From Neophaeotheca triangularis (Eukaryota), in assembly GCA_054600435.1 (NCBI GenBank), contig BAAIJX010000054.1, positions 1-64,000 of the forward strand: DNA of 64,000 nucleotides, written 5' to 3'. A program made the position numbers and the translations under genes. The notes beneath the pieces are model-generated. The model was not told the DNA's origin and did not search any database. It saw only the letters and a list, made by a program, of their open reading frames with translations. Positions 8,314 to 29,217 of this stretch are shown here, one piece after another (positions within the stretch are counted from its first letter, which is position 1; each line of letters starts with the position of its first letter).

Positions 8314-9040
8314 ACTTGAGCAGTGTTGAGTTCGTGGGCTTAGTCGATATGGGCTAAATGGGAAGGTTAACTGCCAAACCTAACATTGTATCGTGAACAC
8401 GTCCCTGTCCGAGCACTGAACCGGATGAAATGCAGCCACCAGAGAAAAGCTCTCTAGACCGTGTCTATCAAGATTCTAGAAGAGTAGCCCTGTAGCGGCA
8501 AAGCTTCCAATCCTCAAGCTTTTCGTCTGCCGCAAATTTGGTCTTTTCAATCAGCTGCGGAAAGTACTGATCACGTGGTAAGGTGTGATATCGACGCTGG
8601 TAGAAGAGAGCTCTATGATAGGCTTTATCCCATCTGAACGTGCCTATATGCTCATACTCGCGTTTAGCGTTGCTGGTAGGCGAGAACGGTGAGTTACTAG
8701 CAGGAGTGCTCTTGCAAGTAAGATGTGCAGTTATGAAGAAGACATTCGTGTTTGCATATGCGCTCCGGTTCGCGCCTTGAAATTCATGCTCTGAGCAGGT
8801 ACTGACACCGGGCATCAGCCTCGCTCGCCTTTGAAAACGATTTAGGTACTGCTCTAAAAGCTGCTCGCAAGAGTAAGCTGTATGCTCATCGCATCATGAT
8901 TGCAGTATCGGTGTTCCAACGCCGTCTTGGGAATTAAATAGTTAGCAAGCCCGGCGCATGAGTATCGAGTGCTGCCTCAAGAGTTTCCAAAAGCGGACCA
9001 TAGATCATTGGCGGCTCATCGCTGGAAAATGCCGCTGATC

Positions 9041-10293
9041 CTACGATTTCTCCTCCCGATGAGGCATCAGCTCCACCAAAGTCAGCTCACTGCTCCCACC
9101 GCCCCTGTTGCAAAGTTGTTCATCATCTCCAGCTCCGCCACCTTGCCTCCTAGAATCCGAGTCCGTCAAACCGGACGATACATCGCAAGCACGCAGCCTC
9201 GGCCGCCCGCGCTGATGGCACTCGGAATCTTTGACCTCCTCAAGCCGCTCGGCGGGGGGTTTGGAAATACCCAGACCAAGGTTAACCATTTTCGACTTCG
9301 ACTTCGAAGTTTTCCGCCGATGGAATAGTGCCTTCAAAGCCGGCGCCGAAGCACCAAGAATCCCGAGGTTAATCTCGATGAATGACCAAAGGTTGATTGG
9401 CGCCGCGTCGCGCATGATCTCTTCAGATCTCGACGAGGTGTAGATGTGGACTGAATATACTCTCACACAGCTGGCAACGGTTGAGATGCCGGCAGCCAGG
9501 AATGCAGCCAAGAGGAGGAAACGCTGACGTCTTGTTTGTTGAATCTTCCAGACCGTAGGAATAGGCAGCGCGATAATGATGATATCGGAGACAATGGTGA
9601 AGGCGTTGGTCGAGTAGAAGAAGGCTGAGATGTTGATGCAGTGCCCAGGGATAGTTGGGTTCCAGTAACGCTGTGCCGGGATGCATTGAACGCCAGTGAC
9701 GACAATGGTTGAGAGGAATTGAAGGGTGATGAGTGCAATGGTGCAGAGTGTCAAAGGGCGAAGTGCGCCTGCTGTCCTCTTGGCTGGTTGAATCGTCAGC
9801 AAAGAACACTTGAAACTTGATTGCTATTCGACTTACCCAAACGGAGATACAGAAAAAGCACAGATAGCTTGATGAAGTACATTGTCGGCCAGTAGAATAT
9901 CTCGACGAGGAAGACCATCTTGATACATTGTTAGCTTGCCCATCTTCGGCCACAGTGTTTGTGACATACCTTAATCGCCTCGGTTTGCCAGCCAAGGGGT
10001 GTATTCTTCTCAAGTAGACCAACGCCCCAGCGCACCGAAAGATACGACGCGACCGTGAAACCAATAGAGAACAACCAGGCGGTCAGTATGATAAGGTCGT
10101 CGAGCCCAGCAGTCCGCCTCTTCTTTAGCACCGTGAGTGTTCGCAGGGACATCGTGACCGCCCCAATCAGTGTGAATACTACACCAACCACGATGAGGCC
10201 GAGACGGTTGAGCGTCATCATGTCTTCACTCTGATTGATCGGCTCGTACTTGAAGGGCCTTTCGTCGCTGGCCTGGTTCCAGAGGGGCGCCAT
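9041..10293 (-). CDS. PTH11-like integral membrane protein (fungal rhodopsin domain, no CFEM), spliced
   Basis: Family-typical motifs GLDDLIILTAW, QCIPAQRYWNPTIPGHC, SDIIIIALPIPTVWKIQ and WSFIEINLGILGASAPALK. About 7 TM segments. Confidence 0.85.
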
Positions 10294-10985
10294 TCTTGCT
10301 GTAAAGGAGGTTTGGGAGAGAAGAGTGACGTGTTGCAAGAGAAACATGATACAAGAAAGCGGACAGCGACGTGACCTGTAACTTGACCCTATCATCACTT
10401 GACAGGTGACAACTCCAGGCAGAAGCATATGGAGCGCCAAGTGAGGTCTAGCACATGACAGTAGCACGGCGATAAATGGGAGAATCCTTGCAGCTTGACA
10501 TCTGATATGGCTATGCCGCTTGCTTCATTGCGCACTTACTAGGCCAGCTTCTCCGCGAGATCGAATGGTCCGCAGCCGGATTCAATTAATCCACCAGGGG
10601 CTGCAACCCTCCCCTTTCTGCCACCACTCTGAGTAGAGGCGACATGGCTACTGAGTCTCTCGGTCCCAACCAAATGCCACAATCCAACCCAAAAACGATA
10701 TTTGTAAACAAGGTAGCTCGTTTATACAAACTATACCGCCCCGGATTCTTCGTCATCGACAGACGCTTGAAGAGTAGCTCGTCGGTTCGGCACTTGAAGT
10801 AGGGCAGTAGGGACCGTTAAGCCATGCATGCGAGAATGGCTGGCTCGTGGCTTGCTATGCTCACGGTAGGTAACAGTGAACATAAAGCGGAGATGCGCAA
10901 TGGAAAGCGAGTCCAGCACTGGGTTCGAGAGGTACATATTCCAGGGGCGCAGCTGTTGGAAAAAGGACTCGTGTCAAGCCTCAAT

Positions 10986-11348
10986 TCACCAATCATCGTT
11001 GTGCGTAGTATCCCTTCTAACTCTGATCGGGCCCTCGAGCTCCTCAGGCAGTATATCGTCGGGAATGCGCTTGCCGTTTTTATACAGAATGACGGCATCC
11101 CCAATTTCTTTCTTCTCCCAGGCCAGAGCGAGGATTCCAGGAAGCGCTTCACGCCAGTGTTTGTAGCCCATCGCTTGAAGATCTGTATCACGGAGTTCTA
11201 TGGCGATGTCTGAGAGCTTGAAGGTGTTTGGTGGCTCGACATAATCGAGGAATTCGAGGAACTTTTGCTGGATTGATGGGTGGTGTGCGGCGTCGACCGG
11301 TCTCAACGGTTCCTTTTGGTGATTCGAAAAAGGCCACCAAGACGTCAT
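10986..11348 (-). CDS. Small DUF3253-like protein
   Basis: PPNTFKLSDIA...WREALPGILALAW...G...ILYKNG...EGPIRVRR resembles the DUF3253 pattern (TxCPSExAR...WRxLM...QKG...GPIRLR). Recognised by eye. Confidence 0.6.
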   Translation of the reverse strand: MTSWWPFSNHQKEPLRPVDAAHHPSIQQKFLEFLDYVEPPNTFKLSDIAIELRDTDLQAMGYKHWREALPGILALAWEKKEIGDAVILYKNGKRIPDDILPEELEGPIRVRRDTTHNDDW

Positions 11349-11554
11349 TTTGAACTGTCGACAGTCGAGACTTGGGATGCTGTGTGGTAGGTACTATGGT
11401 TGGTGCGAAGAGGTGGTGATGTCCGGGGAGCACTGTCGAGGTCGTCTTTAGTGAGGGGCGAAGCTGATTAGTCAGCATTTCAAGATTCTCGGTCCTCTCT
11501 CTGCAAGTTACAACGCTGGAGCACTACCTTACACTTACCACCACGACCCGGGAA

Positions 11555-12754
11555 ATGCGGTTGGCACGTCTACCATGGAGGAGAGCTCCATTTCGGTCGC
11601 CTTTGGACGCAACACGCCTTTCCAAAGGTTCTCGTATCAGAAGTTTCTCGGCAATCCCTGCGCTGAGGCAGGCTGGACCGCCCAGGGGCATACCGGGGCA
11701 TGAAGAGCAAGGCCACACTGGAGGAGGACCGCGCCTCCCGGAATCCATCTTTGGGAGACTAGCTTTGGGTCTGGTAGGAGTCGTCGGTGTCTGGGTAGGC
11801 CTGGGCAGTATAGGATACGGAGGGGAGGGCTACGAGAAGCTACGCCAGAAATTCTGGCCTCGTGCCAGCCCAGATGGCTTCTACAGGTATACCTTGGTTG
11901 GCAAGGAAAACGTCTCGAGTACCAGCGCGATCCTCACTTTGAAAGGTCGCGGCATTGATACAAGTGCTCCGGAGCTTGAGCGTGCTGTCGTAAGCGTGCT
12001 TTTCAAGCAGCCGCAATTGCAGATCGCGCGAGCCTATACCCTTCTACCGTCCACCGAGGAGTCTCAAGCGAACGGCGAGCTGCGCTTCTTGGTCCGGAAA
12101 GAGCAGAATGGCGAGATGTCTGGCTACTTACATCGGCTACCCCTGAACGCTGAGGTGGAGATCCGAGGACCCAGCGTAGACTATGTGCTGCCCGAGTCTG
12201 TGAGCGAATTACTATTTCTGGCCGGTGGCACAGGCATTGTACCCGCGATGCAGGTCCTAAAGGCCGTCGATTCTGATACACCTGTGCATATATCGTGGGC
12301 CAATCGAAGAAGAGAAGAATGTATTGGAGGCAACAGCGACAGTTCGGAATTCTCTTTCAGCAGCCTACTACAATATATCGGAGTGTCTACAACAAGCAGC
12401 GACGCTGCACCGCCAGTCGATGGCAATGCAAGTGCTTTGATCCAGCAGCTCGACAATATGAAACGCCCGAGGAACGCAGGGTCGTCCGACAAACGCAAAA
12501 CTACGATCGATTACTTTGTTGACGAGGAAGGCAGCTTGATTTCTTCGAAAACCGTTCAAAAGGTCATCAAAGATAGCGATCGCAACATCGACACTCATTC
12601 GGGTTCAAAGTTGATCTTCGTATGCGGACCAGAAGGCTTCGTGAACCACTGGGCCGGACCCAAGCAATGGGTTGATGGACGCGAGGTTCAAGGCCCGCTC
12701 AGGGGCGTACTCTCAACCCTCGATACTAAAGGATGGAGTGTGTTCAAGCTGTAA
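11555..12754 (+). CDS. CYC2: Mitochondrial FAD-dependent oxidoreductase, cytochrome b5 reductase-like (Cyc2)
   Basis: Presequence and TM segment, KQPQLQIARAYT (RxYT), GEMSGYLH, AGGTGIVP, VCGPEGF and a WAGPK...QGPLRG C-terminus. Confidence 0.8.
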   Translation: MRLARLPWRRAPFRSPLDATRLSKGSRIRSFSAIPALRQAGPPRGIPGHEEQGHTGGGPRLPESIFGRLALGLVGVVGVWVGLGSIGYGGEGYEKLRQKFWPRASPDGFYRYTLVGKENVSSTSAILTLKGRGIDTSAPELERAVVSVLFKQPQLQIARAYTLLPSTEESQANGELRFLVRKEQNGEMSGYLHRLPLNAEVEIRGPSVDYVLPESVSELLFLAGGTGIVPAMQVLKAVDSDTPVHISWANRRREECIGGNSDSSEFSFSSLLQYIGVSTTSSDAAPPVDGNASALIQQLDNMKRPRNAGSSDKRKTTIDYFVDEEGSLISSKTVQKVIKDSDRNIDTHSGSKLIFVCGPEGFVNHWAGPKQWVDGREVQGPLRGVLSTLDTKGWSVFKL

Positions 12755-13169
12755 TTCTGCAATACCACCCGGCTTGGGTATGTTCTTTGTAAAAGCCTTG
12801 GATCGGTATCGCTGCCGGGGCGAGTATGCTAAAATAGCAAAGCAATCCGCGCTTCGAAAGCGAGAGCGGAAAGCTTCCCGTTATGCGGAACTTTATTGAG
12901 GCGCCAGATCCAAAGACGCGACACACGCGATAATCGTTCAGAACTCATCAGTGTGCTGAGTTTTGCCAGTCGATCAAAAGCTGCATGGACGCAAAACCGA
13001 AGTCGGTGGCCGGAATGAGATGAGTTTTGTCTCGTGAGGTTCTCAAAGGAAGCACTTGACAAGCAGGCCAAATTCCAGCCCTAAGTGGCTTGCTCAGCAC
13101 CAATGCCGTGAGCCCTATCCGTGCGGCTACCTTTCCGCACGTTAAGATATCTAGAAGTCAAACGATTTT

Positions 13170-13197
13170 TGAGCCGCAAAGCGGCTCGATTCAATCT
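13170..13197. repeat. Left (5') asymmetric terminal inverted repeat with internal hairpin
   Basis: TGAGCCGCAAAGCGGCTCGATTCAATCT matches the reverse complement of 23468-23497 except for a 2-nt indel. It contains GAGCCGC-AAA-GCGGCTC and is preceded by TTTT. Confidence 0.88.
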
Positions 13198-13245
13198 CTA
13201 TGGGGTAAAACGTGCAGAGAAGCGGCATCGCTGATTGGCTGCTTT

Positions 13246-13279
13246 CGACGGTAACGGGCCGCAAGGCCCGTTACCGTCG
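13246..13279. other. Perfect 15-bp stem hairpin with GCAA loop
   Basis: CGACGGTAACGGGCC-GCAA-GGCCCGTTACCGTCG. Confidence 0.92.
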
Positions 13280-13401
13280 TGAGCAGGCAACTCAGCCGAG
13301 CCGCGACCGTCGTCCCTGCTTTGAACGCAACTCCGTCTTAGCGACCAGTAGACACCGTCTTGACCGTCTTGATGAGCATACAACTCTATCGCTTCGCTCA
13401 T

Positions 13402-13530
13402 GCGATACACCTCGCATCTCGACGCCGAATGAAAAACGAACCTACCTTCCCGGCGATACACCTCGCATCCCGACGCCGAATGAAAAATGAACCTACCTTC
13501 TAGACGCTACACCTCCCATCCCGACCCCGA
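13402..13530. repeat. 51-bp tandem repeat, about 2.5 copies
   Basis: GCGATACACCTCGCATC(T/C)CGACGCCGAATGAAAAA(C/T)GAACCTACCTTC starts at 13402 and 13453. A degenerate third copy starts at about 13504. Confidence 0.88.
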
Positions 13531-13603
13531 TAGCAGGAAGATGTACAGTACGCGTAAAACGTTAGGAAGGGGCATTTCTACACACTCCGTATCCCGATCA
13601 GTA

Positions 13604-13676
13604 ACTCCGTCTTGGTAAAAAACGACTCCGTCTTGGTAGAAAACGACTCCGTCTCGGTAGTAGATTCACTCCGTCT
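13604..13676 (+). repeat. ACTCCGTCT motif array (4 copies, 21-22-bp period), left subterminal
   Basis: Copies start at 13604, 13625, 13646 and 13668. Confidence 0.9.
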
Positions 13677-14358
13677 AGGCAAGATCTAATGTCAGTATTT
13701 ACAAGCCCATTACCATGAACATGAACTACCCGAAATGCTATGACTATTGGGATGAGGGGGATAACACTACGCCTAGAAGCAAACCTTATACCTCCTTGTA
13801 AAAGAAGAACACTATCGCCAGTTCGCATACTATGTTGCCGCAATGAGAACAGGAAGGTATACTGATAGCAATGTCACGCCTTCCGTCGAACATAAAGCAT
13901 TGTTCCTATACCCCACGAAATGCCCACCGTAGGTGCCGCCGGAGGTATAGGGGGGGGGGTCTAGGGGGGGGGGAGCATAGCTCCCCCCCCCTGGGATAAC
14001 TGCGAAGTAGTACTTCACACTGCGGAAACACCACACAGGAAACACCCCATCTAGTAACTCCGTCTTAGTAAGTAGAGATTCCGTCTCTACCGTTTGTAAG
14101 TATGTCTTGAGGTTGTTACCTACTCTGTTTTTCTACGGCGAAGGTAAGCCATGTCTTGGCTTTCATTCACGAGTAGCTAGAGGTGAATGGGTACCCGCAT
14201 GACAACACGGGCACCTTACAGTTTGCTAACACCTTCCACTTTTCCCTCATACCTTACAACCTTCTCCCCTTACACCTTCTAACCTTACACCTTCTAACCT
14301 TCTCTACTTTCAACCCTTCTACCGAACTGGTTGTTCACAACATCGTCAAACCGCCATT

Positions 14359-17300
14359 ATGGCGAATGCTTAGCAGCATGAAGACGGCGCGGTAACCTTT
14401 AAGTGCATGAGGTGTCACGTCCGGACTATTACTGGCTCCTTCCGTCCTCTTACTAGCAATACGCTCGAGAATTATTGTCACAATTGCCGTGGTCTACACA
14501 TGAACATGATCACCTAGAGACTTACCTACTACATGCCAAATGGTAGTGGGCCGATCTTTGATGCACCTACCAACATACCTCGGCCTCCATGGGCACAACA
14601 ATCGCTAGTTAGAGTGTCATTGTCTCAACCCGCACCTACGCCGTCAATAGCGCCTCACAGACCTAACACTGGATACGCTCCTAGACTGTATACCGATCCA
14701 AATGCTTTGGCATATGGGCCACCACGTCCTCTACAACCCCCTGTACAACCCCCTGTACAACCCCCTATACAACCTCAACAACATCCGACTCCTACCACCC
14801 TGTCTGCTCGCTGTATGAGATGCGGGCAGGACAAGCCAATCCTACACTTTGCGCCCCTTGCCGGACGTAAGAGGAAGTATGGTGCCCCTACCTACACGAA
14901 CAACTGTGCTAGCTATAGAGACTTTGTTGTCGACACTACTAACAACACTGTGCGAAAGAGAAGAGCAGATGAAATGAGTAGTGGTGCTGCATAACCTATG
15001 ACTTTAGCACTAGGCTTCCGTCTCGTAGCAATGCCGACATTCCCTACCGCCATGACCTCTTCTCAAGTTCAGTCACTCGCTCAACCCAACCGAGCTGTCA
15101 TCGGTCCGAGTTTGCAGGGATCGATGGCTCCCCTACAACCTTCTACCCATCCGCTCTACTACCCCGGCATAGAGGAGACCGAAGAGCAGCGGACAGGACG
15201 CCGCATGCTTTCAGCCTAAGGCCGTGAGGCTAGATATGAGGCACGGCAATCCGGATTACTAGCGTCTCGACCTTTACTACCTACTGCCTCCATGGGACCC
15301 CTAGCAGCACTAGGCTCACTACGACAGTGGTTCTATTGTACTCGATGTAGCGTCAACCGGCCCTACCTACTTTCGTAAGGACCTAACGGCAATGATGTGT
15401 GTATCTATTGCGTCTAAGGTGTTACTGGCGACAGCATGTAAGATGAGATCAAGTGGTGTCTCTATACTACTCATCCTACCGCTCGAATCCTTTTCTTTGA
15501 CAACGATGGTATTGAGCATGTAGAGGCCTACATCAGCTACCGGTTTACTCCACAACCTTAAACCCCTCAAGCTAACGAGTCGAGTTTTGGAGTTCCTCCC
15601 AATACGAGATCGTCCTAGACCCTTACGGGTACCCAGCCCCGTTCGTAGAGGAGGACCTAGAACCCTGGTGAGAGCGCTCGATAGCGCGAACGTCTGCTTA
15701 ATGAGACGGACCCTCCTCTTGCTTCTCAGCTAACCGTTGAGTCGTTGCAAGCAGCACCAGCTCTCTCCAATATAGACTTCGGCTTATTATAGAACTTCAA
15801 CCGCTTCTTGGATAAGGATGTGATGTAAGAGTGTCTACGTTGTCATGAGTCTTGGTTCAATATGGAACTAAGCAACAACATCTACGCGCGTTGCTACTAG
15901 AGAGATCACGGCTTACTTGCTAGACAACTATACCTCATGTCTTAGGGGAACAACATGATTCTAACCGGACCACATCCTGATCTTGAGCCTCTTAATGTCA
16001 TCGAGGAAATCTTAATAGCCAGAGTCCATGTCTCAATGGAGATTTATTAGGTGCGAGGCCAGCAATACCGTTATAAAGGACACGTCATCAACTTTCTCCG
16101 TGACACTACCCGGGTGTATCGTCGTCTGCCATTACTCCCTGCCAATGCCGACATTGTGTTGCTCCGTCCATCGACTAGACAGGACGCTGCAGTTGGACGC
16201 CAATTTACCAAGGAGTTCACAGTCCGTCGTCGTGTTATACGCATGTAGCTTGAATTTCTCCTTACCAATCACCCTGGCTACGCCGATATCAGTATTAATT
16301 ATGAGCGTCTCAGTCAGCTTCCAGACAATGCAGATGTTATGGACCAAATCGTCACTGATGAGTATAATCTTCCTGATGACGGCGTACGGCCACAAGGTAA
16401 TGGGCAGCCTACGGAGCAAGAGGATGCTGTCAAAGAAGAAGAGCATGAGGATACTAGCTTCGATGGCATCGCGGTTCCCAACCTACTAGACGACAACGTT
16501 ACTGTAGAAGACTTGCGTGATCGCCTCTAACAACTCAATCCGGTTAATCAATCGCAGACTCAACCTCTTGCACCTTCATACCCGCCAACCGAGAATGATA
16601 CGCCGCCGAACCCTAATCAGCCTGATGAGATTCCACATTTGACATGGCCGGAGCTCCAAGAAGTTCCTCTACAAGAGTGGGATCGCTCTCGACCTCTGTT
16701 GTGCTTAGCTTTTCCGTCACTCTTCCCGTATGGCGACGGTGATCATTCATAGCCACGCGAACGAAGCGTAACCTATGCTGCATACATCGACTATTTGATG
16801 AAGTACAAGGACGGCCGGTTTGCTCGCCATCCACGTTTTCGCTACGTTGTCTTCAACACCCTTATGAGATAGCAGACTCGAGGCAAATCGACATACTTCG
16901 TCAATCGCCGCGCCGAGGAAGGTGATCTTTCAATCGAGGACATCTAGGCTGCCTTATCAGCCGACGAGCGTGACTACAAAGCGTAGGCGTTATTGAACTC
17001 CATCATCTGGTTTAGTAGGAGCCTCCGAGGTACTCGCCCTTATTAGAATAGCCGTCATCTCCATCTAGAGGCCATGGTTAGAGCTCTCGGCAAGCCTGAT
17101 CTTTTTGTGACTTGTAGTGCCGTAGACCTACAGTGGGAGTCTCTTATGAAGCTTATGCCCCAGTATGAGCTTTATAAGACGCTACCCTCGGAGCAGCGCA
17201 TCAAGCTCGCTCGAGAGAACCTCTACCAGAACCCCCATATCGCTACAACTCACTTTAAGCGCCGATTCAAGGCATTGGTGAAGGACGTTCTTACCCTAAA

Positions 17301-20300
17301 GTTCAACGTCAAAGACTACTGGCTTCGGTACGAATGGTAAGGCTGGGGGAGTTCTCACGCTCACTTCTTCCTTTAGTGTCACGGCATGCCGACAGATCTC
17401 AACATGGAGATTCAACAACATCGCGAAGAGTTCGCAAAGCTCTAGGGTTTGCATGTCACAGCGCTCAACCCCGAGCCTGGTCGTGAAGTGCCTATAAGCA
17501 AGATTAGGGCAATTCACGCTAGATTAGAGCTTGAAAACCATCAAGCCAACCTTTCTAATATCATCAACTGTGTCCAACACCACATGTGTAGCAAGGAGTA
17601 TTGCCTCCGTCGCAAGAAGGATTCTAAGGGTGATCAGCTACTATATCGTTTCTACTTCCCCCGCGAAGTGCACATAGAGGCTAAAGTCTTACACGAGCAT
17701 AACAAGGCACATTGGTCGTTTATAGCTGCTTACAACGACCTGCAGCTCAACCACTATAATCGGTTGCTTTCTATAGCCTAGCGTGCCAATACCGACATCA
17801 CGCCGTGTACGACTACCGACGCTGTGCTCAACTACATCTCGAAATACTACAGCAAGGGCGAGAAGCAGACTGTACCATATGTCGACATTATGAAGCAGAT
17901 TCTACTAAAGGTATTAAGCGAGAAGCTAGTATTGTCTTTCATCGCCAAAGTCATGAACAAGCTTATTGGTGAGCAGGACTGGTCTGCCCAAGAGGTTATG
18001 CATCTACTCCTCAACCTGCCGTTACAAGAGAGCACTCGCACCGTCGTTACCCTCGATTGTCGTCCCCTTAATCAGCAGAACAGCGCCATCTACATTGAGG
18101 TGTATGAGGGTACGACGAAAAGAGGAGATAGCCCTTGGGACAAGTACATAAAACGGTCTGAGGAGAATGAAGACATCACGTTTTTTGTCTACCTTACCCA
18201 GTACAACCTCTAACGACGCGGAAGCCCTTCGGTCATTAGCAACCCGTTGAGTCATAGAATCATTAACTACTTTCCTCGATATCGAGTAGAGCTAGACCAT
18301 CCGGCATACCCTAACTTCTGTCGCATGAGGATCTTGCTCCACCACCGCTTTCGTGAAGTACCTCGTTATGATAAGGAGCATCCGTATCGGTTCCCTGTCG
18401 ACGATCCAGATGAAGACCATGAGGCTCTAGACTCATAGGAACCAGCCTTCACGAGCTAGATAGCTACGTACACATACTACTGATCGAATCATGCGTACTA
18501 TCAGCAAGAGATCACCGAAGACTACCTTACCGACCTACCTGAGCGCAACGAAGATGAATTTGAGGATCGCGAGCCGCTAGATGAAGGACAGGCAGCGCAC
18601 TTTCACGACCTAGCCCGTAAGATGCCAAACATCAATCGGGGTGTGCAGGATAATGATCCTAACAACCTTAGTGAACGAGAAATAGACAGAGCGGCTGACT
18701 GGAGCGATCGCATTGGGAAATATAAAGATCAATACCCCAAAGTCCATCAAGGGGTTAGTTAGTGGCAAGACATGAAGGCCGCGTAGCCTACTAATCTCGA
18801 CGTCGACATGTAGTCGACAAAGCAACATGATCTGTTGAATCGGTTCTAGCGCTAACTATTCGACAAAGTTACCGAGCATTATCAACAGATTCTCGATAGC
18901 TCCTCCCCCTAGCCTCTACTCATTAACGTCGATGGTCCGGCAGGCACTAGCAAGTCGTTCCTCATCAACATGCTGTCATCTGAACTGTAGAAGATAGGAC
19001 GTCAAGATCACGTAGAGTCCGGGGCTCCTGGTGAAGCACGTAGCCTAGTCATTAGGCTTGTACCTACTGGATCAGCGTCTTTCGCAATCTCTAGCCAGAC
19101 CCTACACTCTCTCTTTCTACTGCCTATCAACTAAGGCTTCAAACCGCTCGCAGCTGCACAAGTTCCTACTCTCAAGAACCAACTCATAGGTGTGTAATAC
19201 ATCATCATCGACGAGAAATCAATGATCAGCCTCAAGATACTCTACTAGCTTAGGTAACAGTTAAAGCAAGCGTTTCCTGCCAGTACGTTTCCTTTCGGTA
19301 GTATGAACATTATGCTGTTCGGTGACTTCTATCAGCTCACTCCAGTTAGAGGGCGTCCTCTATTCCAAAGTGGCGATCTCGGTTCGCCGGAGAACATCGC
19401 TGGCTAACAAGCATACCATTAATTCGACACTACTATTGTGCTTGAGACCATTATGAGACAGCAAGGCGATTCAGCAGATCAGCGAGCATTTAGGGATGCG
19501 TTAACTGCGCTCCGTAACGGTAAAGTAGAACGTGTGCATTGGCTTCTCCTCTATAGCCGTGTCAAGTCTATGATGCCGCTACCAGAGATTACACGATTTA
19601 ATAATGCTATTTATCTGTACTTTAACAACAGTACAGTACGTAGGTACAACCACGACAGGCTACGGGATGTGAATCGCGCCGTAATCAGGCTTTTCGCAAC
19701 CCATGATTATGAGCGGTCCAAAGATATAGAACCAAAAGAGGTTCATAACCTACAAGCCGTCCTTACGGTTTCGATTGGAGCTCGGGTTATGTTGCTTGAG
19801 AATCTATGGACTGCTCATGGACTAGTTAATGGTAGGCAGGGAATACTATACGACATCGTCTGGGCTTCGGATGTCACAGACCCCAAGACTTAACCGCCGC
19901 TCTTCCTATTAGTTGCATTTGAAGGTCTACAACTAGATGCGCCTACACTGTTTGAGTTCGAGGGCTGAAAGGTGCTTCCAATCTACTACAGCAAACGCTC
20001 CTTCTTACGTAACCAACGCGATGCCTTCCATGAGCAGTTCCCTCTTACGGTTTCTTATGCTTTGAGCATTCATAAAGCTCAGGGCATGACTCTCGATAAG
20101 GCTATATTAAACATTGTAGAGCGCGAGCATTCCGCTGGCTTGGTTTATGTTGCTGTCTCTCGGGTCAAAGAATTGAAGGGGTTGATGCTTGATGAGCCTA
20201 TCGACCTCGAACACCTACAGCATATTGGTCATAACAAAGTTGCTGAGATGCGGGACATGGATGCTATACGAAGGCAGACTTAAAGGCTGGCTCCGCCACC

Positions 20301-21036
20301 TAGTAGCCCCCCGACTCCTGGAATGCGGTCTCGTGCCACTCGAAATCTCCCGTCTAACGTCGATACAGGCTATCAATACTCCCAGCAGCCTATACTAACC
20401 TCTAACGTTATTGAAGTCACCAGCGACCTTCGGAATCTCATGAGCGATCAACTCTGTTCCGAAGGTCGACGCGAAATTCATGCTTTGAATAACATCCCTT
20501 GGGTAGAGCCAGGAATCTACCACTCGGATGGTTTCGACGTTAAAGGGTTGAATGCGGACGGTTTTGATGAGTAGGGCCGTAACGAGGATGAGCGTAGGCG
20601 ATATGGAAAGGACGTTGCGCAAGATCATACCTTAGTTCAGGCTTTAGTAGAGGGCATGGAGTTTGATGCAGCTTGTGTCTATGCCGTAAGGACTAACACT
20701 TGGGCTGGATAGGACTACGAGACAGATGAACGCGATGCCGCACGCCTTCGTAGAACACATCTCTTCTGTCCTCAGTAAGATAAGGGTAGGCAAGGCGAAG
20801 GTCAGGATACTCCGCGCGCATCAGTTTTGAACCGTGATCTAGGGGAGTTGCCAGGGTAGAACGAGCCAGAGCAACAAGGCATGCGTTCTCAGCAGTTTGA
20901 GGATGATGGTATCGGTGCTACTGATATGGAGGATGAAGATGAGAACGAGGAGGTATTGGGAGACTATATGATAGTAGGGGCCTTGCCTGACCCTACCCCT
21001 GACCTTGAAGACCATACCATGGAAGACATAGATTAG
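14359..21036 (+). pseudogene. Helitron Rep/helicase (N-terminal CxxC fingers, DUF6570-like region, HUH Rep, Pif1 helicase) broken by RIP stop codons
   Basis: ORF fragments at 14533, 14998, 16051, 16339, 17074, 17449, 17824, 18247, 19438, 19972 and 20323 are all in one frame. Motifs: GQQYRYKGHVINF, LGKPDLFVTCS, RYEW*GWGSSHAHFFL, YISKYYSKGE, GPAGTSKS, IIIDEKSMI, GDFYQL, MRQQG, QFPLTVSYALSIHKAQGMTL and YVAVSRV. The exact 3' stop is uncertain. Confidence 0.92.
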
Positions 21037-21078
21037 GACAAGTACGTAGGAATACAGGAGAGGTAGTAAGTGTAGTAG

Positions 21079-21140
21079 ACTTCGTCTTTACTCCGTCTTG
21101 GTACTATGGACTCTGTCTTAGGGTGCTATGGACTCCGTCT
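21079..21140 (+). repeat. ACTCCGTCT motif cluster between the two Helitron ORFs
   Basis: Perfect copies at 21090 and 21132. Single-mismatch copies at 21079 and 21110. Confidence 0.85.
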
Positions 21141-21407
21141 AAGGGTGCTTTTTTACTTTGTATTAAACCTTTTTGTCCTTTGTCAAATTTTGAGTTTAAT
21201 TTCAGGCACATGAATGAATATGTAAAATTTGCATTCCGTTTCTGGTGAATGTGAATGAGTGAATGCGAACAAAGGCAGACGTCACCGCCTGTTGATAAAA
21301 CTAGCCTTCCCTCCCCTTTGCACTTTACACCTTTTCATCTACCTCCTACAAGTTCAACAACTGCTACCTCACACGCATTACCTACTACCTAACACCCATT
21401 ACCTACC

Positions 21408-23273
21408 ATGGCCGACGACGATATCTATCGTGACCTAGACAGTAGCCCTAAGGAGCAATCTGAAGAGTAGACTGAAGAGAATACTGACAGCAACACCTAC
21501 ACTTCACCAACCCGTGAAGAGCGTGATAGGTCTATCGATCGTACAACCTGGCGTGAAATTCCTGAACACCACCGTCATGCTTATGGCGGCACTCCTTACT
21601 ACAAAGGAACCACTCCTTTAGTATAGCAGACTCCGAGACCCAAGAGAATCTATATGTCTGGTATTACTCCTTCTACTACCTCTACAGCAAGACGTCTAGA
21701 GCCTGGCCCTCGCTATGACCCGCAAGATCCATTCCGGTTCCCTACTCCGTCCCCGCCACCGCCAGGTACCGAAGGTAGGGGCAGGGGTAGGGGTAGGCCA
21801 AAGACCCGCGCCTCACTAAGTCGACGTCGTCTAAGTACACTAGCAAAACCAAGTCAAGCAAGGGGAACTCTCGGAGTAAGCACTAGTAGTGTTCGTCGCC
21901 CTACATTCCTATCTACGCTAGTAGGGGGCGAACGACGTCCTTCTAGAGCTCTAGATACGCTCATCTAGCGAAGGGAAGCTCGCCGTGTGTCAATAGCCCC
22001 GTCTACTAGTCGCATGTCCGATCTCACGTACACATTTAGGGGTGCTAGTCTTACTTCTCTAACTCCAGTATTCCATAGGGGCTCAGGTCTAGCTCCGATT
22101 GCTCCTCATGTGCTTCGTGACGGAACACCAACTCCTCTATTACGTCTACGAAGCCCTAATTGGGGTTCTACTCGTGGGTCTAACGCTACTGTTAGAGGCT
22201 CTCCCTTCTCACCGCCACCTGCTCCTTCCTTAGGAGGTGGTTCACCATTCTAGTCACGCGAACCTACGCCTTTCCGGTCGCGCGAACCTATGCCTACTTA
22301 CCTAAGTATCGAATCGACGGACATGGCAATGTAGGACGAGGCCTACTACCCAGCTTTAGAGTCTCAAACCGACGACGTTCGCTCACCCATTTACCGACCG
22401 TCCGCCTCTTACCGACCATCTGCCTCTTACCGCCCATCACCTACACCTTCTTACCAGTCTGTCGACCGATCTCGCTCTCTTTCCTACCACTATTCGCCTG
22501 CGCCGTCTACCCGCCAACCAACACCGATTGATGTACCTACTCGCTTGCCAGTACCGTCTAGGAGGACCTAACGTATACTGGAATCTGCGCCTATATCAAC
22601 GACGAAAAAGGATTCACCGAAGAAGGGCAAAACTCAGACAAGGACCGTCATCTAGAAGCCTATCAACTACTCTCAGTCTAAGTAGAACAGCCTTTCTCAC
22701 GACGTCAAATCGAAATTGTCCCATGTTGCGCATATCGAAGACACTAATGATGGTAGGAGGGCAAGCAAACCATGTAGTAACTATGAGAAGAAGGGCACAC
22801 CCTGTCTTATCTATACCGATGCTAGTATGGACAAATACTGTGTAAAGGGCAAGGGCTTTCGGTGTGCCTAATGCCGTCGCGACAATACAGCTGGGTGTTC
22901 AAGAGATACCCCTAAAGGCCGTGGGGGCATACCAGTACCAACTACGACACTAGTACCAGCACTAGCACCAGCAACCGCAATAGCACTAGCACTAGTACTA
23001 GCACCAGACTTACGTACACCTATAGAGCTATGGGCTGCTGCTAATCAAGACCGCGAGGCCGTAGAACGCACTGCAGAGGAGGCCGAGCACCGTGCACTTC
23101 GTCATGCTGTTGCTACGAATATGGAGCCAGGTTGGTTGACAGAGCAGATTAGGTACTATGCTAGACAGCTTCGAGTCGAGGAGGTGTTCCTACGGGAGCA
23201 ATTCGCTAACAACAACATCATGTTCAGGGACAACCGCACGAGGTGGATGGTTCGCTATGTTAGAGGTGGTTAA
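21408..23273 (+). pseudogene. Helitron second ORF (~620 aa): S/P/R-rich disordered region, Zn(II)2Cys6-like motif and helical C-terminus; RIP stops
   Basis: ACCATGG start at 21408, in frame with fragments 21654 and 21987. The frame continues to CSN(Y)EKKGTPC-x19-CA(*)CRRDNTAGC and closes at TAA 23271-23273, which could itself be a RIP stop. Confidence 0.7.
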
Positions 23274-23291
23274 ACAGCAAAGCAGCGTCGG

Positions 23292-23386
23292 AGACGGAGT
23301 CATAGACAGAGTGGAGATGGAGTGAGCAGACTGACAGACGGAGTGGGCAGACTGACAGACGGAGTGAGTAGACTAACAGACGGAGT
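23292..23386 (-). repeat. AGACGGAGT (reverse complement of ACTCCGTCT) array, right subterminal, 21-bp period
   Basis: Perfect copies at 23292, 23336, 23357 and 23378. Variants at 23304 and 23315. Confidence 0.9.
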
Positions 23387-23467
23387 TCGACGTAGTAGTA
23401 AATACCTCGCGTATTTTTGCCTTAAGCAATTTCACAATCAACTCGGGATATCACACTGTGCTTACTA

Positions 23468-23526
23468 AGATTGAATCGAGCGACGCTTTGCGGCTCACCT
23501 ACCAATAAGCACGGCGGGATTGGCAG
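23468..23526. repeat. Right (3') asymmetric inverted repeat plus terminal hairpin
   Basis: AGATTGAATCGAGCGACGCTTTGCGGCTCA at 23468-23497. Then CTACCAAT-N12-ATTGGCAG, a perfect 8-bp stem if one TG>TA change is reverted, followed by CACA-TTTT. Confidence 0.82.
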
Positions 23527-23620
23527 CACATTTTATTATATCTGATCATTCGCACTGCCTTTTGCACCCTTTGTTTCACCTCGACTAACACTATCTGAGC
23601 GGCATTGAAAATCCGGGAAG

Positions 23621-25367
23621 ATGCGCCGCGAGAAGAACCAAGACGCGCTCACACCGCCCACGTCCCTGGCAGACGAAGAAGCGCTATCGAACGACCTACG
23701 ACAAGTTGAGACGAACAATGCCCGGCCTTCATGCTTCAATTCTACCACGCAGGAGATTCTCTTCGTGCTTACAGCCACGATGGCGGTAGCAATGACTTCA
23801 TTCGTCACGGGTACAATCACCGTAATTTCATCGTTCGTTGGAGAGGACCTAGACATGACTACCGCCCAAATAACTTGGATGTCGTCGGCTGCATCGCTGA
23901 GTAGCGGTGCTTTTCTGCTTTTCTTTGGCAAGATTGCAGACTTGTTTGGTACGAGGAGCACTTGAGTGTGCGACTGTCGCTGTGCTCTAGCTAACCGAAG
24001 CAGGCCGCAAATTATTGTTCGTTGGATCCTTGTTCCTATTCGCTGTCTTCTGCCTGGCAGCAGGTTTTTCTCAGGATGCAATGACCATAGACATTCTACA
24101 CGGCGTCCTCGGACTATTCTCTGCCAGTGCCGTACCGCCAGCAGTAGGCGCGCTAGGTGTCATCTACGAGAAACCTAGCAAGCGGAAGAACTGGGCATTT
24201 GCTTGCTTTTCGGCCGGTAATCCATTGGGTTTCGTCTTTGGTACTATCTTCTCTGGAGTGGCCTCGGATATCTTCAACTGGCGAGCTTCTTTCTACTTAC
24301 TGGCCATCATCTACCTCGTCTTTACAATCGCCGCCGTCTTCACTGTCCCTCGAGACTTTACACCCAAGGAGCCCTTCAACGTGGATACGCTCAAAAGATT
24401 TGACATCATGGGGACGCTGCTCACAATTGGCGGTATCGGCATGTTCTCTGCTGCTTTGTCGCTCGGAGACACTGCTGCTAACGGCTGGGCAACCGACTAT
24501 GTTTTGGCCTTACTAATCGTAGGCGTTCTACTCATTGTCGGCTTCGTCTTTTGGGAGATTTACTTCCCGTATCCCTTAATACCGATGCGCATCTGGCGTG
24601 ACAAGAACTTCAGCTTAGTCCTCGCCATCCTCATGCTTGGGTTCATGGCTTTCACGCCAGCGACCTTCTTTTTGGCTCTCTACTTCCAGGACGTTGGCAA
24701 CATGTCGGCTCTCATGGTAGCTGTACACCTCTTACCTATGGCTATCGTTGGCATCATCGTGAACGCCATCGCTGGCCTCATTCTCCATCGGGTCAGCAAC
24801 AAGCTCCTTCTTTACATTGGCACAATCTGCTATACCATCGCCTTCCTCCTTATTGCCGTCAATCGCCGCAGCAACTCCTACTGGTCGCTGGCATTTCCGT
24901 CTCTCATACTCAACGTCATTGGTGCCGACTTGGAATTCAACGTGGCAAACATGTACGTCATGTCATCGATGCCGCCGAATCAACAAAGCATCGCAGGTGG
25001 AATATTTCAGACGACGACGAAATTTTGCACGACCCTGGGGCTGGGTGTGGCGACTGCGCTGTTCAATTCGATCCAACAGAATCCGAGCTTGGCAGATTTT
25101 TGGGACCGCGAGACGCAGCCGTATTCGGTGACTTTCTGGTTTGCGACTGCTTGCGTTGCGCTCTCAATCTGTCTCGTACCTTTTGTTACAATCACCACGC
25201 AGGGGGGACAAGAGAAGGGAGAAGATTCTGCGAGCGATGCAAACAGTCAGGCCGAAGACGGGCTGCCACCTGCGGTCCCCCCAATGCCCGATGTGCACCG
25301 CGTGGAAGAGAAGGCGGGCACTTTGGAGACCTCGACAAAGATGGCGCCGCCAACGGGAGGCTTGTAA
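23621..25367 (+). CDS. MFS drug:H+ antiporter (DHA2/EmrB-like, ~14 TM), 2 exons
   Basis: FLLFFGKIADLFG|R joined across intron 23949-24003. Also GNPLGFVFG, WRASFY, FDIMG, PLIPMRIW and QSIAGGIF. Confidence 0.9.
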
Positions 25368-25467
25368 TTTGGCATTTCGCAACTTTCAATCAGCATTTTG
25401 AGCGTTCCGAGCGATCTGATAGACCTGATATTCAATTGACTCTCATCACCACAGCCTACCTCTTACC

Positions 25468-26325
25468 TCACGCGTATCGCTGCCCCTTTGCGTTGTAGTA
25501 CTCAGGGTAACTCGCACTGTACCCGAGCAATCCCGCACCGATCCATCGGCCCAGCACGACGCCCATGGCATAGCTCAAGGGCTGCATAAGCCAGTCCGGA
25601 CCGAAACGAAACGCCAGGCTCACTTCCGCGGTGTCGAGGAAGAGCAAAAGTTGCGGCAGCGATGGCGAGACACCCTGGATTCGGCAGTCTTCAAGGTAAC
25701 CGTAGAGGTTGCGGAAACTTGCACGCACCCGGCACGGTCAGCAAGGAAGTCCTTACGCCTTACTTGAACAATTCGCCATCTTCTTCGAAACCGGCTACGA
25801 ATGCTTGGATGGGCGGCAACTCACAACGTCTCCGTGGTTCCCGCAGATTCCGGCTGCCCACTGGGGGCTTTGGGGGATACAGCCGTCGTGATCTCGATTG
25901 TACAGGGGCTCTTGCAACTCGTGTCGACGGCAAAAGTGTGTCGAGCTGCAACGGGGATACGCACGGGTTGCGGATCGTCGGACGAAATGGTGAAGTCCTT
26001 GCCCTCGAGTGTGAAGACGAAGCGACTGAATGGTATAGTGAGCGAACCGCGCGCGCTAGGAATTACACTAGCTCAGTAGATGGGCCCCGTACCCTTCGGT
26101 TATATGGAAGTACTCCTCCTGATACCAGTGCCAATGATAAGGCGGTTTGAGCATTGCGCCGCCGTCGGGGTGCTTCCGGAGGTCTGTGGGGCGGTGCGTG
26201 GTTTGTATTTCTTTGACCGCGAGGCCTTGAGGGGGGCGTTCCCAGCGGGTTGTGCGTATGCCATCGTATTGCGTGAGAGTGTCAAGGTGGGCGATTTGCG
26301 AGCGCTTCACGTGGAAAGAAGACAT
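25468..26325 (-). CDS. Cupin-domain protein, 3 exons
   Basis: PPYHWHWYQEEYFHITEG (cupin motif 1), then FVFTLEG...IPVAARHTF (motif 2), then FFRNLYGYLEDC...LPQLLLFL. Confidence 0.78.
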
Positions 26326-26960
26326 GGTGTTTGAGCTGACGAGCCACGGGGGATGTACTCAGGAGACTGGACTCGTGTTTCGGAAGACGATTACTGTTGG
26401 CATGCTCCTTGTCCTACCATGGGTGTGATGGTTCTAGATCGTGAAGTGGTGGTACAGTTGCGCCTTGCACGGAGTACGCAACGGGACCCCCGCCTTCAGC
26501 TGCTGAGATGAGTGCTGTAGGTAGGTTACCTACAGTGCAGCGACTGACATTGTCTCATTATTACAGGCGATGTGCCTTTAACAATCTGCCAAGTGTTGTT
26601 ATTATGGATTGTCTCAGGTCTTGTCGTGTCACTGTTTTAATTCCAGAGATTATTCGGTATTCAGAAGACTCTACTACCTATGTAGAGCGAGAACACCCCG
26701 CCTGTTAAGAAAACTCCGCGGGATGCCCGGGCGGCCGATACCGCTAATAACAAAAGATAACTCAATTAAGATAAGGTGTAGATAAAAGTAGTGCGGGCGA
26801 GCATGTGGCTGCACGTGGCGAATATGCATTCAACTAAATTTTTTCCAACTATCTCACCAACCTATGTACCTACCCTACCTTCACACACCAACGAGCTCCC
26901 TTCCCTTCCCTTCTACTTAACTTCCACTCATCGCGAAGGCTCACTAGCACCGTCGCCAAT

Positions 26961-29217
26961 ATGACTTCTCTAAAAGGCGACTCGACCTTGCCAGAGGCCA
27001 ACAACCTCAAGCCTCAGAATCATCTTCAGTCGGATTTCAATGCCGGAAGTGACAGCGCCAGTGTTGTGAGCAGTAAAGAGTTGAGCCGTCCTTTAACGGA
27101 AGCTGACAACCAAACTACTCTTAGGACTCCGACGAGCGCTATCTGGTAAGGCACGATACGGGCTGAGCCACCATCGAGCGGGATTCAAATCTACGTAAAC
27201 CTTCAGCGCATCAGTGAGTTGAGTTCTTAGCCCATCAAGTACAGTGTCATGGCACGCGGGTGCCCGTCTGCTTGTCTCCCTACTGGATTGCCACCATCCT
27301 GCTCTGCACAGAGGCAACAGTATGAGCAACTCCCGAGGAAAGCTATGCAGCGGGCTGAGATGATACCGCTTTGAACTTGATCGCATTCATATGCGCGGAA
27401 GAAGTGACCTTGACATCTCATCGATGATGCTCCTGTACCCCTCTCCCCTGATGGGGCTTAATGCTAACAGCTCGGAAGCGTGCTCTCGGCTATAAGCAGG
27501 TCAGTATTGATATTACCTCCATCTGCTGAATAACGGCTGACTTTCTACAGACTTTGCATCGCCAATGGAAGTTCTTCGAAAGCTTTGCATCGAGTTTCGG
27601 TGCGTCACCTTCATACTCTTGAGTCTGGAGTCGAGCTGACATAGACTATAGCTGCCCTGTACTGCGTCGGAGGAATCCGAACTACCTTCACGATCGGAGT
27701 AGGGGCTGGAGGGCCGGCTGCGTACTGGTGAATGACGCCGACTACTGTCTTTATTCTGCCCTCACTTTGCTAATATTTGCTAGGTCGAGCTATGTGGTTA
27801 CCTGCATCTTCGTCACCATCACAGCTGCAGTGTTGGCTGAGATATGCTCTGCACTGCCAGCGGCCGGAAGCATTTATTTCTGGGCGGCCGAGAGTGGCGG
27901 ACGCAGGTATGGCAGACTCTTTGGTTTCATTGCCGCCTGGTGGAGCACCACAGCCTGGACGACCTTTGTGGCCAGTGTTTCCCAAGCGACTGCAAACTTT
28001 CTACTCGCTGAAATATCCGTGTTCCGACTCGCATTCACGACCGATACGAGCGACATCAGATTTCGAGCTGTACAGTGGATTGTCTCGGAAGTTATTCTGT
28101 TCCTCGCCATTGGAATGAATTACCTGGATCCTAAGATCTACAAGACGGTCTTCCGGCTCGCAACCTTCGTCATCTTGCTGGACTTCACCATAAACATCAT
28201 TTGGTTACCCATCGCCGTCTCGAAGACGTACGGATTTCAGGACGCCTCCTACGTCTTCACTCAGACATACAACGAGACAGGAGCGCCGCCCGTCTGGAAC
28301 TGGATGCTGAGCTATTACGTTACTGCAGGAGTCTTGGTTGGCTTTGAGGCTGCTGGCCACATTGCAGAAGAGACGCAGAATGCCAACCTGAACTCGGCCA
28401 AGGCGATTTTCTGGTCTGCAGTGGCATCAGCGGCCATAGGCTTTCCATGCGTCATTCTCTTCCTCTTCTGTCTCCCTGACCTGGATACGTTGTACAGTTT
28501 CGGAGCGCCGCAGCCTTTTGTTCAGATCTACGCGCTGTCTTTGGGAAATGGTGGCCACATCGTCATGAACGTCGTAATTATCATCGGTCTCTTCTTCAAC
28601 ACGACCATTGCCGGCGTGGCCAGCTCGCGACTCATCTGGGCTGTGGCACGAGACGGCGTGCTGCCGTTTTCTGGATGGATCTCGAAAGTGTCGGCGGACA
28701 AGCAACCCAAAAACGCCGTGATTGTCATGCACGCGGTGTCAGCGCTGTTGCTGTGTACAATCCTCCCTTCTCCGGTGGCTTTTGAATCGCTGGTCAGTGC
28801 GGCCGGTGTGCCTACTATCACCTGCTACGCCCTAATCGCTTTCGGCCGCTGCTTCATCACTCCGCATGATTTCAAACATGCTAAATGGTCACTCGGTCGC
28901 TGGTCCCGACCTTTGACGTTCATCACTTTTGTCTGGAACTTGTACCTGGCCTGTGTCTTGTTCTCACCATTGTACTTTCCGGTAACTGCGGAAGGGTTCA
29001 ACTGTGCGTATAAATTGCGTCGCGCCGATTACTAGACCTCGATGCTAACGCATTCTCAGACTCACCGGTCATCTTCGGCGCCATCACCATCTTTGGTCTC
29101 CTCACCTGGTGGATTACTCCAGAGTCGCAATGGCTGCCCGCCGCTCGTTTGGGCAAGGTGCACAGGCTGGACGACGAGTACACTCCCTATCAAGATGGCG
29201 AGGAGCAGCGCACTTGA
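26961..29217 (+). CDS. Amino-acid/polyamine permease (APC; GABA/choline/TPO5-like), multi-exon; first junction anomalous
   Basis: Microexons ALGYKQ / TLHRQWKFFESFASSF / GAGGPAAYW, then LAEICSALPAAGSIYFWA, GFEAAGHIAEET, SRLIWAVARDGVLPFS and a final exon SPVIFGAITIFG. Confidence 0.82.

Follow-up and report, generated by a model that had tools for sequence, protein, structure and literature searches.

Helitrons of the Helitron2 type (Helitron-like element 2, HLE2) start with a T and carry inverted repeats of 8-15 bp, of which the 5′ copy lies 0-2 bp from the end and forms a hairpin, according to PMC3627910 and PMC11417382. A hairpin follows the 3′ copy, which is placed 20-30 bp from the terminus (Bao & Jurka 2013, PMC3627910), and HLE2 is described as inserting between T and T, with an apurinic/apyrimidinic (AP) endonuclease as the mark of the related Helentrons (Li et al. 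2024, HELIANO, PMC11417382). Among fungi, the FoHeli1 and FoHeli2 elements of Fusarium are given as 5-6 kb long, with a start of TCAG or T[c/a]AG, a 12-bp repeat and a preference for TNAT^A targets (Chellapan et al. 2016, Mobile DNA 7:27, PMC5148889). They open with a TCAGCC-GAA-GGCTG hairpin, of which an inverted copy recurs 38-51 bp before an ATATTTT or ATTTT end with A as the right flank; the same description has Chaetomium relatives ending in ATTTT and FoHeli1 copies in F. solani mutated by repeat-induced point mutation (RIP), and places the Helitrons of Fusarium, Chaetomium and Metarhizium in Helitron2 (PMC5148889). Here we analyze 64,000 nucleotides of Neophaeotheca triangularis (assembly GCA_054600435.1, contig BAAIJX010000054.1, positions 1 to 64,000 of the forward strand; hereafter the window), in which positions 13170-23534 very probably represent one insertion of an HLE2/Helitron2-type Helitron-like element built on the terminal plan of Fusarium FoHeli1/2 and of the Chaetomium elements. 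A first-pass annotation, made from the letters of the window, had proposed a full-length non-canonical Helitron at this place.

The insertion and its empty site

The window was compared with contigs of three public runs (X1, X2 and X3) that share one organism label, at a match threshold of 88% likeness; some records are dropped and RIP-diverged copies fall below this threshold, so that further copies could be missed. An insert is present in one of these samples and precisely absent from another. Contigs of X1, which is probably the source sample, cover the whole window including the element locus. By comparison, one X2 contig (record 9), 8957 bp long, aligns with 8678-13164 and with 23530-28000, leaving out exactly 10,365 bp, and no X2 contig reaches 88% likeness across 13708-23472. 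Relative to the window, this contig has 64 differing letters plus 7 gaps in one flank and 59 differing letters in the other, or ∼1.3-1.4%. In X3 the sole match is a major facilitator superfamily (MFS) gene at <90% likeness, which is uninformative on the insertion site. An empty site in another isolate had been predicted by the first-pass annotation, and the joint in X2, from 13164 to 23530, lies at the predicted place.

Five letters (ATTTT) at this joint fit either side. The empty allele reads ...AAACG ATTTT ATTAT... and the filled allele ...AAACG ATTTT [TGAGCC...GCAC ATTTT] ATTAT..., the pentamer standing twice in the filled allele (13165-13169 and 23530-23534) and once in the empty one. The register is therefore ambiguous by up to 5 nt, and the six possibilities, from 13165-23529 through 13170-23534, give the junctions G^A (one), A^T (one), T^T (three) and T^A (TTTT^A; one). 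By analogy with FoHeli1/2 we take 13170-23534, in which the element would start with T, end with ATTTT and occupy an ATTTT^A target; the target site is CGATTTT^ATTAT, a T-run. The whole element, on the plus strand, thus measures 10,365 bp with a register of ± up to 5 nt, as delimited by the X2 skip and by the limits of the RIP signature described below. The first-pass coordinates, 13170-23530 (10,361 bp), were 4 nt short at one end. The left pentamer at 13165-13169 (plus strand), which the X2 joint defines, would be either the target or the left half of a 5-bp duplication.

Within the window, blastn of the element returned its terminal repeat pair and one internal palindrome and no second copy. 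No other X1 contig matches the element at ≥88% apart from a 54-nt piece, 23448-23501, a result that does not by itself demonstrate uniqueness. This 54-nt stretch, which holds the 3′ inverted repeat, recurs at one or more other loci in the source contigs: two long contigs, of 12,288 and 18,326 bp, match it over 35 and 45 nt, each with 1 mismatch, before they diverge, and a 34-nt node in the same region has a depth of 317 against ∼130. The source-sample contigs break once inside the element, at 13959-13983, where there is a G-rich 14-nt tandem repeat (13944-13973), probably as an assembly effect.

Asymmetric terminal repeats

The two ends of the insert share an inverted repeat, formed by 13170-13197 (TGAGCCGCAAAGCG--GCTCGATTCAATCT; plus strand) and the reverse complement of 23468-23497 (minus strand), with 28 matches in 30 columns and one 2-bp indel. 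The blastn comparison of the element with the window recovers the same pair (30 nt, 93.3%, E 8.9e-5). Its alignment score of 52 was reached by none of 5545 controls, with maxima of 26 among 5000 mononucleotide shuffles of both ends and of 27 among 545 pairs of real sequence at the same spacing elsewhere in the window. An ungapped repeat scan of the window missed this pair because it extends matches without gaps. Neither half of the repeat recurs elsewhere in the window, except for a third, half-repeat match at 36834 (2 mismatches) that was rejected as chance, with no second half beside it.

The left arm begins at 13170, directly after the ATTTT at 13165-13169, and the right arm stops at 23497, followed by 32 nt and the ATTTT at 23530-23534. 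Whichever of the six registers is chosen, this asymmetry persists, with no more than 5 nt between the left repeat and its end of the insert and 32-37 nt between the right repeat and the other end. The left arm contains the 5′ hairpin, a 7-bp G+C-rich stem (13171-13177/13181-13187) with an AAA loop, which folds at -8.7 kcal/mol (z -2.93) and is equaled by only 2 of 200 shuffles. The 3′ terminal segment (23498-23534, plus strand), placed by the fold and the X2 joint, consists of a weak 5-bp hairpin and the closing ATTTT. Read at both termini, the element lacks TC...CTRR ends, starting T(T)GAGCC... and finishing ...GCACATTTT. The first-pass annotation had noticed most of this plan from the letters, and it stands: a 28/30 imperfect inverted repeat that bounds the Rep/helicase region, a left copy that is terminal after a T run, a right copy that is subterminal, and no canonical TC...CTRR ends.

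Two further structures lie just inside the 5′ end. The repeat scan found a palindrome at 13235-13290 (26-nt arms, 88% complementary, 4-nt loop), ∼65 nt inside the end, and a 51-bp tandem repeat of ∼2.5-3 copies at 13402-13554 (plus strand). The segment 13166-13300, which holds the palindrome, folds at -45.9 kcal/mol (z -9.05), matched by none of 200 shuffles.

The RepHel gene

The larger gene, RepHel, occupies a frame of 2065 codons (14518-20712, stops read through) that has 48 in-frame stops and no frameshift; 46 of the 48 are TAA (18) or TAG (28) and 2 are TGA. A homologue aligns to 15754-20274 as a single tblastn segment, and ORF2, the second open reading frame (ORF) of the element, is likewise without frameshift, in agreement with the earlier claim that the damage is point mutation. 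The proteins homologous to RepHel stop near codon 1922, so that 20281-20283 may be its natural stop codon; 45-47 of the stops are premature. We annotate the RepHel pseudogene, from the first ATG to this possible natural stop, at 14533-20283 on the plus strand, with CxxC motifs, DUF6570, Helitron_like_N and PIF1 as its parts, based on the frame, Pfam and the alignments.

Pfam detects Helitron_like_N (1.4e-35, residues 756-951), DUF6570 (2.2e-24) and PIF1 (1.3e-15, residues 1455-1672). The HUH residues H947 and H949 and the residues Y1106, K1109 and Y1110 are kept in the window copy, in columns that are invariant across a 12-sequence alignment. A HUH/two-tyrosine Rep domain upstream of a PIF1-type helicase in one protein is the arrangement that defines the Helitron superfamily. 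In the N-terminal 470 codons the CxxC motifs resemble, by eye, those of the homologues, and the Walker A glycine at 1478 is a serine in the window copy. Other frames of the element, on both strands, gave no AP endonuclease (Exo_endo_phos), RPA, OTU or other Pfam domain.

At E≤1e-3, 210 proteins match RepHel, the best being fungal RepHel proteins with 33-42% identity; identity to the eight aligned homologues is 36-42%, and no protein found exceeds 42% over the aligned columns. We built a FastTree phylogeny of 107 core sequences, consisting of the window copy and those 106 of the 120 listed matches that cover >1100 query residues, with an arbitrary root on the most distant matches and with the window branch lengthened by RIP. 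The window copy pairs with one protein (P0009; support 0.81) in a 6-leaf group completed by three further proteins and one from Scytalidium (0.69). This group falls outside a 60-leaf clade (1.0) of proteins from Fusarium, Metarhizium, Hirsutella, Neonectria and Chaetomium (C. globosum).

Among six metagenome loci scanned for their best inverted repeats, only short repeats of 10-23 nt were found. One metagenome relative, L006, which is 33% identical to RepHel, carries a 14-nt inverted repeat without mismatch (228-241/6429-6442) that is itself palindromic, with a T before the 5′ copy and the 3′ copy ∼80 nt from the contig end, a FoHeli-like look that is too unconvincing to use.

RIP damage

A RIP-type signature is confined to the insert. 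TpA/ApT is 1.21 in the element and 0.72-0.74 in the flanks, and (CpA+TpG)/(ApC+GpT) is 0.92 against 1.17-1.25, where the usual cut-offs of the two indices are 0.89 and 1.03. In 500-nt windows the indices switch at ∼13250 and ∼23500, in agreement with the limits of the empty site. The strongest index falls in ORF2, where TpA/ApT rises to 2.67 at 21751-22250; as ORF2 is marked as strongly as any other part of the element, it belonged to the repeated unit. Of the RepHel stops, 6 stand in columns where W predominates among the eight homologues and 9 in columns where Q does. The window RepHel also differs at 48 of the 247 columns that are invariant among 11 homologues, and 24 of these 48 deviations fit C>T or G>A only, compared with 2 that fit the reverse direction. 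Indices, switch points and directional deviations thus agree with RIP as the first-pass annotation had recognized it.

What had been made of this damage holds in part. The element is structurally full length and carries two ORFs, and ‘autonomous’ applies to its ancestor only; it fails for this copy because of the 45-47 premature RepHel stops, the changed Walker A glycine and the 48 of 247 changed invariant residues. The proposal that the active ancestor could be reconstructed by reversing RIP is unsupported from this copy alone, because only half of the 48 deviations are reversible as C>T/G>A and the source contigs offer no second copy at ≥88%.

A second patch with a strong RIP-like signature lies far downstream of the element at 59501-61000, with a TpA/ApT of 1.65-2.57, and a six-frame Pfam search of 59200-63700 was empty.

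ORF2 and the 9-mer arrays

Downstream of RepHel on the same strand, ORF2 extends over 621 codons from the ATG at 21408 to the TAA at 23273 with 9 premature stops, all TAA or TAG. The other two frames over this span have 26 and 42 stops, which argues that ORF2 was once a gene. Neither a word-based protein search nor Pfam gave a match to ORF2. An exhaustive HMMER search gave 12 matches (E 1.8e-8 to 3.7e-4), all to residues ∼320-520 and all to small proteins of 150-513 amino acids, ORF2 being 2-4 times longer and mostly without a match. The named relatives, from the Dothideomycete genera Phyllosticta and Elasticomyces, fall into clusters of 1-6 members and lie on long contigs.

The family alignment has SH[IV]GRIEET..G, then C-x2-C-x6-C-x∼19-C-x2-C-x6-C and then a helical tail, with the motif and the six-cysteine domain at residues ∼370-520 of protein P0002. 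In Zn2Cys6 domains the spacing is C-x2-C-x6-C-x5-12-C-x2-C-x6-8-C. On this frame and the alignment of its relatives, ORF2 (21408-23273, plus strand) is annotated as a pseudogene of 621 codons with the SH[IV]GRIEET motif, a six-cysteine Zn2Cys6-like domain and a helical tail; in the window copy the second cysteine is a tyrosine and a stop falls between the fourth and fifth cysteines. Pfam Zn_clus appears below the cut-off in 3 of the 12 relatives (E 0.002-0.009) and not in ORF2 itself. A profile search of the family against PDB returned nothing significant, only coiled-coil rows and AlcR at E>0.7. A structure model of one family member has a predicted local distance difference test score (pLDDT) of 92-95 over the six-cysteine domain; its top Foldseek rows are Gal4, AlcR, Put3, Leu3, Pho7 and Hap1, all at E>1 with none at E≤0.001, and a second comparison of the fold gave Z≤3.9. 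We treat the zinc-cluster assignment as a lead, not a result.

No ORF2-like sequence was found among the 120 RepHel matches listed or in 80 metagenome loci, a weak absence as these contigs are mostly ≤7 kb. In the literature found, no Helitron-borne zinc-cluster gene is described and ‘Helitron’ and ‘Zn2Cys6’ occur together in no title or abstract, which leaves such an absence unproven. A 12-residue motif, PRYDxxxP[YF]RFP, is common to RepHel (residues 1282-1293; 18361-18396) and ORF2 (21708-21743), the two DNA stretches being 72% alike over 36 nt, and may be chance or a shared short linear motif.

The exact 9-mer ACTCCGTCT is found 12 times in the element and is absent from the remaining 53.6 kb of the window. 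With ≤1 mismatch, the window has 29 sites, a number not reached in any of 100 shuffles, and 21 of them are in the element. The sites form arrays with a period of 21-22 bp, and most one-mismatch variants are C>T or G>A. Three arrays can be told apart: a 5′ subterminal one at 13330-14086 (plus strand; 9 sites with ≤1 mismatch, partly at 21-bp spacing), an internal one between RepHel and ORF2 at 21079-21140 (plus strand; 4 sites, 22-bp period), and a 3′ subterminal one in inverted orientation at 23292-23386 (minus strand; 6 sites, 21-bp period). The arrays resemble sites to which a protein of the element itself might bind, through ORF2 or through the N-terminus of RepHel.

Weighing alternative explanations

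A cut-and-paste transposon with terminal inverted repeats (TIRs) and a 5-bp target duplication, carrying a Helitron or invaded by one, would also explain an ATTTT that stands on either side of the insert and once in the empty allele, together with the 28/30 inverted repeat. Its repeats should be terminal on both sides, yet the right copy is 32-37 nt inside in every register while the left is within 5 nt; outside RepHel neither strand gave a DDE or other transposase domain, and the layout is that of the published Helitron2/FoHeli plan, all of which makes a TIR transposon very improbable. The five identical bases at the break points are likewise what a microhomology-mediated deletion would leave, and if the X2 allele were such a secondary deletion between ATTTT microhomologies, the 10,365-bp limits would not be the ends of an element. 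We find this hardly credible, given that the left break coincides with the base that opens the terminal hairpin and inverted repeat, and the right break with a FoHeli-type ATTTT end, that the RIP signature has these same two limits, and that X2 is without a contig of ≥88% likeness anywhere in 13708-23472. Several points nonetheless weigh against a Helitron2-type insertion as we read it. The 3′ stem (5 bp, 23502-23506/23519-23523) folds at only -2.6 kcal/mol and was matched or beaten by 108 of 200 shuffles, so that the hairpin that the first-pass annotation had placed after the right repeat exists as a stem that does not exceed chance, perhaps through erosion by RIP. RIP requires a second copy, and the source contigs hold none at ≥88% beyond the 54-nt piece. 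With ATTTT on both sides and once in the empty allele, a single insertion leaves a 5-bp target duplication possible and indistinguishable from an ATTTT-ending element in an ATTTT^A target, which also makes the earlier statement that there is no target-site duplication undecidable from one insertion. The left flank, CGATTTT, misfits the TNAT^A preference of FoHeli1/2. The probable HLE2 placement draws on the structure of the termini and on affinity to proteins of Fusarium, Chaetomium and Metarhizium, without curated Repbase HLE1/HLE2 references and in a tree whose root is arbitrary, and every step of the mechanism proposed below is taken from relatives.

Within a Helitron2-type insertion, ORF2 may serve the element as a DNA-binding accessory factor of its own, or it may be a gene captured from a host. 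The second reading, to which we give somewhat less than an even chance, takes ORF2 as a passenger: a host gene, or a fragment of one, that was picked up from the genome of a Dothideomycete and plays no role in transposition. The 9-mer arrays would then be promoter- or satellite-like repeats with no connection to it. PMC11417382 presents the capture of genes by Helitron-like elements as well documented, and several of the findings above suit a captured gene: the restriction of all 12 matches to residues ∼320-520 of ORF2 and to proteins of 150-513 amino acids, the Phyllosticta and Elasticomyces relatives that resemble low-copy host genes in their clusters of 1-6 and long contigs, and the lack of ORF2-like sequence in the 120 listed RepHel matches and the 80 metagenome loci. 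A passenger sits less well with the RIP index of ORF2, the strongest in the element, which suggests part of a repeated unit and not a one-off addition to this copy, with the 9-mer of both inverted end arrays standing also directly upstream of ORF2, and with a length 2-4 times that of the relatives, most of it unmatched. A more specific proposal, which we hold to be unlikely, is that this Helitron2 lineage carries its own sequence-specific DNA-binding accessory protein, the predicted Zn2Cys6-like ORF2 reading the CCG-containing ACTCCGTCT arrays in an iteron-like marking of the ends; alternatively, the predicted reader of these repeats would be the N-terminal CxxC region of RepHel. Such end-marking, if true, would follow a logic comparable to that of geminivirus Rep iterons or CACTA subterminal repeats.

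Proposed mechanism and history

By analogy with its family, this Helitron-like element would descend from an ancestor that transposed as a rolling circle (‘peel and paste’). Its HUH/two-tyrosine Rep domain would nick at the 5′ T and its PIF1-type helicase would unwind in the 5′->3′ direction, while the 5′ repeat, paired with its subterminal 3′ copy, would mark a stop a few tens of nucleotides further on, at ATTTT. The resulting single strand, probably circularized, would be joined to a T-rich ATTTT^A target that resembles its own 3′ end, with no true duplication. A target pentamer identical to the 3′ pentamer of the element (ATTTT) is expected of a rolling-circle nuclease that uses one motif for both termination and target cleavage. 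After the family had reached at least two copies, RIP in a sexual cycle would have destroyed both genes; this copy is inert and unable to supply transposase.

Host site and significance

The gene downstream of the element encodes an MFS transporter (23621-23956 and 24003-25364), whose exon 2 product is 100% identical to a Neophaeotheca triangularis protein. Since the 3′ end of the insert lies 86 nt upstream of its start codon, the two alleles differ by 10.4 kb of RIP-mutated DNA in the MFS promoter. A FAD/NAD-binding oxidoreductase lies upstream of the element.

The locus provides a rare clean pair of filled and empty alleles, in which both ends of such an element are fixed to within 5 nt. To our knowledge, the host black yeast is known only as asexual. 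A RIP footprint in an insertion that is absent from a sample of ∼1.3% divergence suggests fairly recent RIP, and hence a sexual cycle, in the lineage; alternatively, an already RIP-mutated copy may have been mobilized in trans. If RIP acted on this lineage-specific insertion itself, it would imply sexual cycles in this black yeast.

Comparison with known systems

Comparison with the FoHeli elements is by description, and our RepHel matches are not equated with particular FoHeli proteins of PMC5148889. The element resembles FoHeli1/2 in opening with a T followed by a G+C-rich hairpin with a 3-nt loop (here TGAGCCGC-AAA-GCGGCTC, with the AGCC...GGCT core in common), in the inverted 5′ sequence that recurs before the 3′ end (38-51 nt in theirs, 32-37 nt here), and in the ATTTT end with A as right flank. 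It also shares with them one long RepHel with DUF6570, Helitron_like_N and PIF1, and the RIP-mutated state of copies, theirs in F. solani. It differs in its start (TGAG), its end (CACATTTT), a repeat of 28-30 nt instead of 12, a length of 10.4 kb instead of 5-6 kb, a second ORF downstream on the same strand, the lack of a convincing 3′ hairpin and the Dothideomycete host. Its RepHel, at 36-42% identity, lies outside the 60-leaf Fusarium/Metarhizium clade (1.0). It is not a member of FoHeli1/2 but a different family with the same plan.

With Helitron2/HLE2 as characterized in the sources cited above, the element shares asymmetric inverted repeats, a 5′ repeat hairpin, a 5′ T and insertion in a T-run (T^T or T^A, where HLE2 targets are T^T or TTTT^T/C). 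Its repeats are longer than the 8-15 bp given there, its 3′ repeat is 32-37 and not 20-30 nt inside, and its 3′ hairpin is unconvincing. The first-pass annotation had left the layout as Helitron2- or Helentron-type; the asymmetric termini bear out Helitron2/FoHeli, and Helentron falls away since no AP endonuclease domain was found in the element. Helitron1, represented by Helraiser (PDB 7lcc), has the same RepHel architecture and presumably the same rolling-circle mechanism; canonical elements of this type have a single 3′ hairpin and an A^T target. Its similarity to RepHel (E 9.7e-6) extends over only 49 residues of the helicase C-terminus, and our element lacks its 5′ TC and 3′ CTRR; one of the six registers gives A^T, with ends that are still not TC/CTRR.

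FoHeli3, in the description of PMC5148889, is the closest in size and gene content, being 9-11 kb long with an extra ORF without known domain beside RepHel. That ORF is described as lying upstream on the opposite strand, and the FoHeli3 termini are given as TGCCT...CTCCTGT with no 3′ hairpin. The suggestion of an undescribed two-ORF family therefore holds as to the family, with no protein above 42% identity, and not as to the two-ORF layout, which is known from FoHeli3 among fungal Helitrons of 9-11 kb. General knowledge of Helitrons is unchanged by this locus, which carries the FoHeli-type (Helitron2) terminal plan beyond Sordariomycetes, into a halotolerant black yeast of the Dothideomycetes. 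The element represents a new family among the fungal Helitron2-type elements already known, in a copy that is polymorphic for insertion and inactivated by RIP, and ORF2 and the 9-mer arrays are the features of note in that family.

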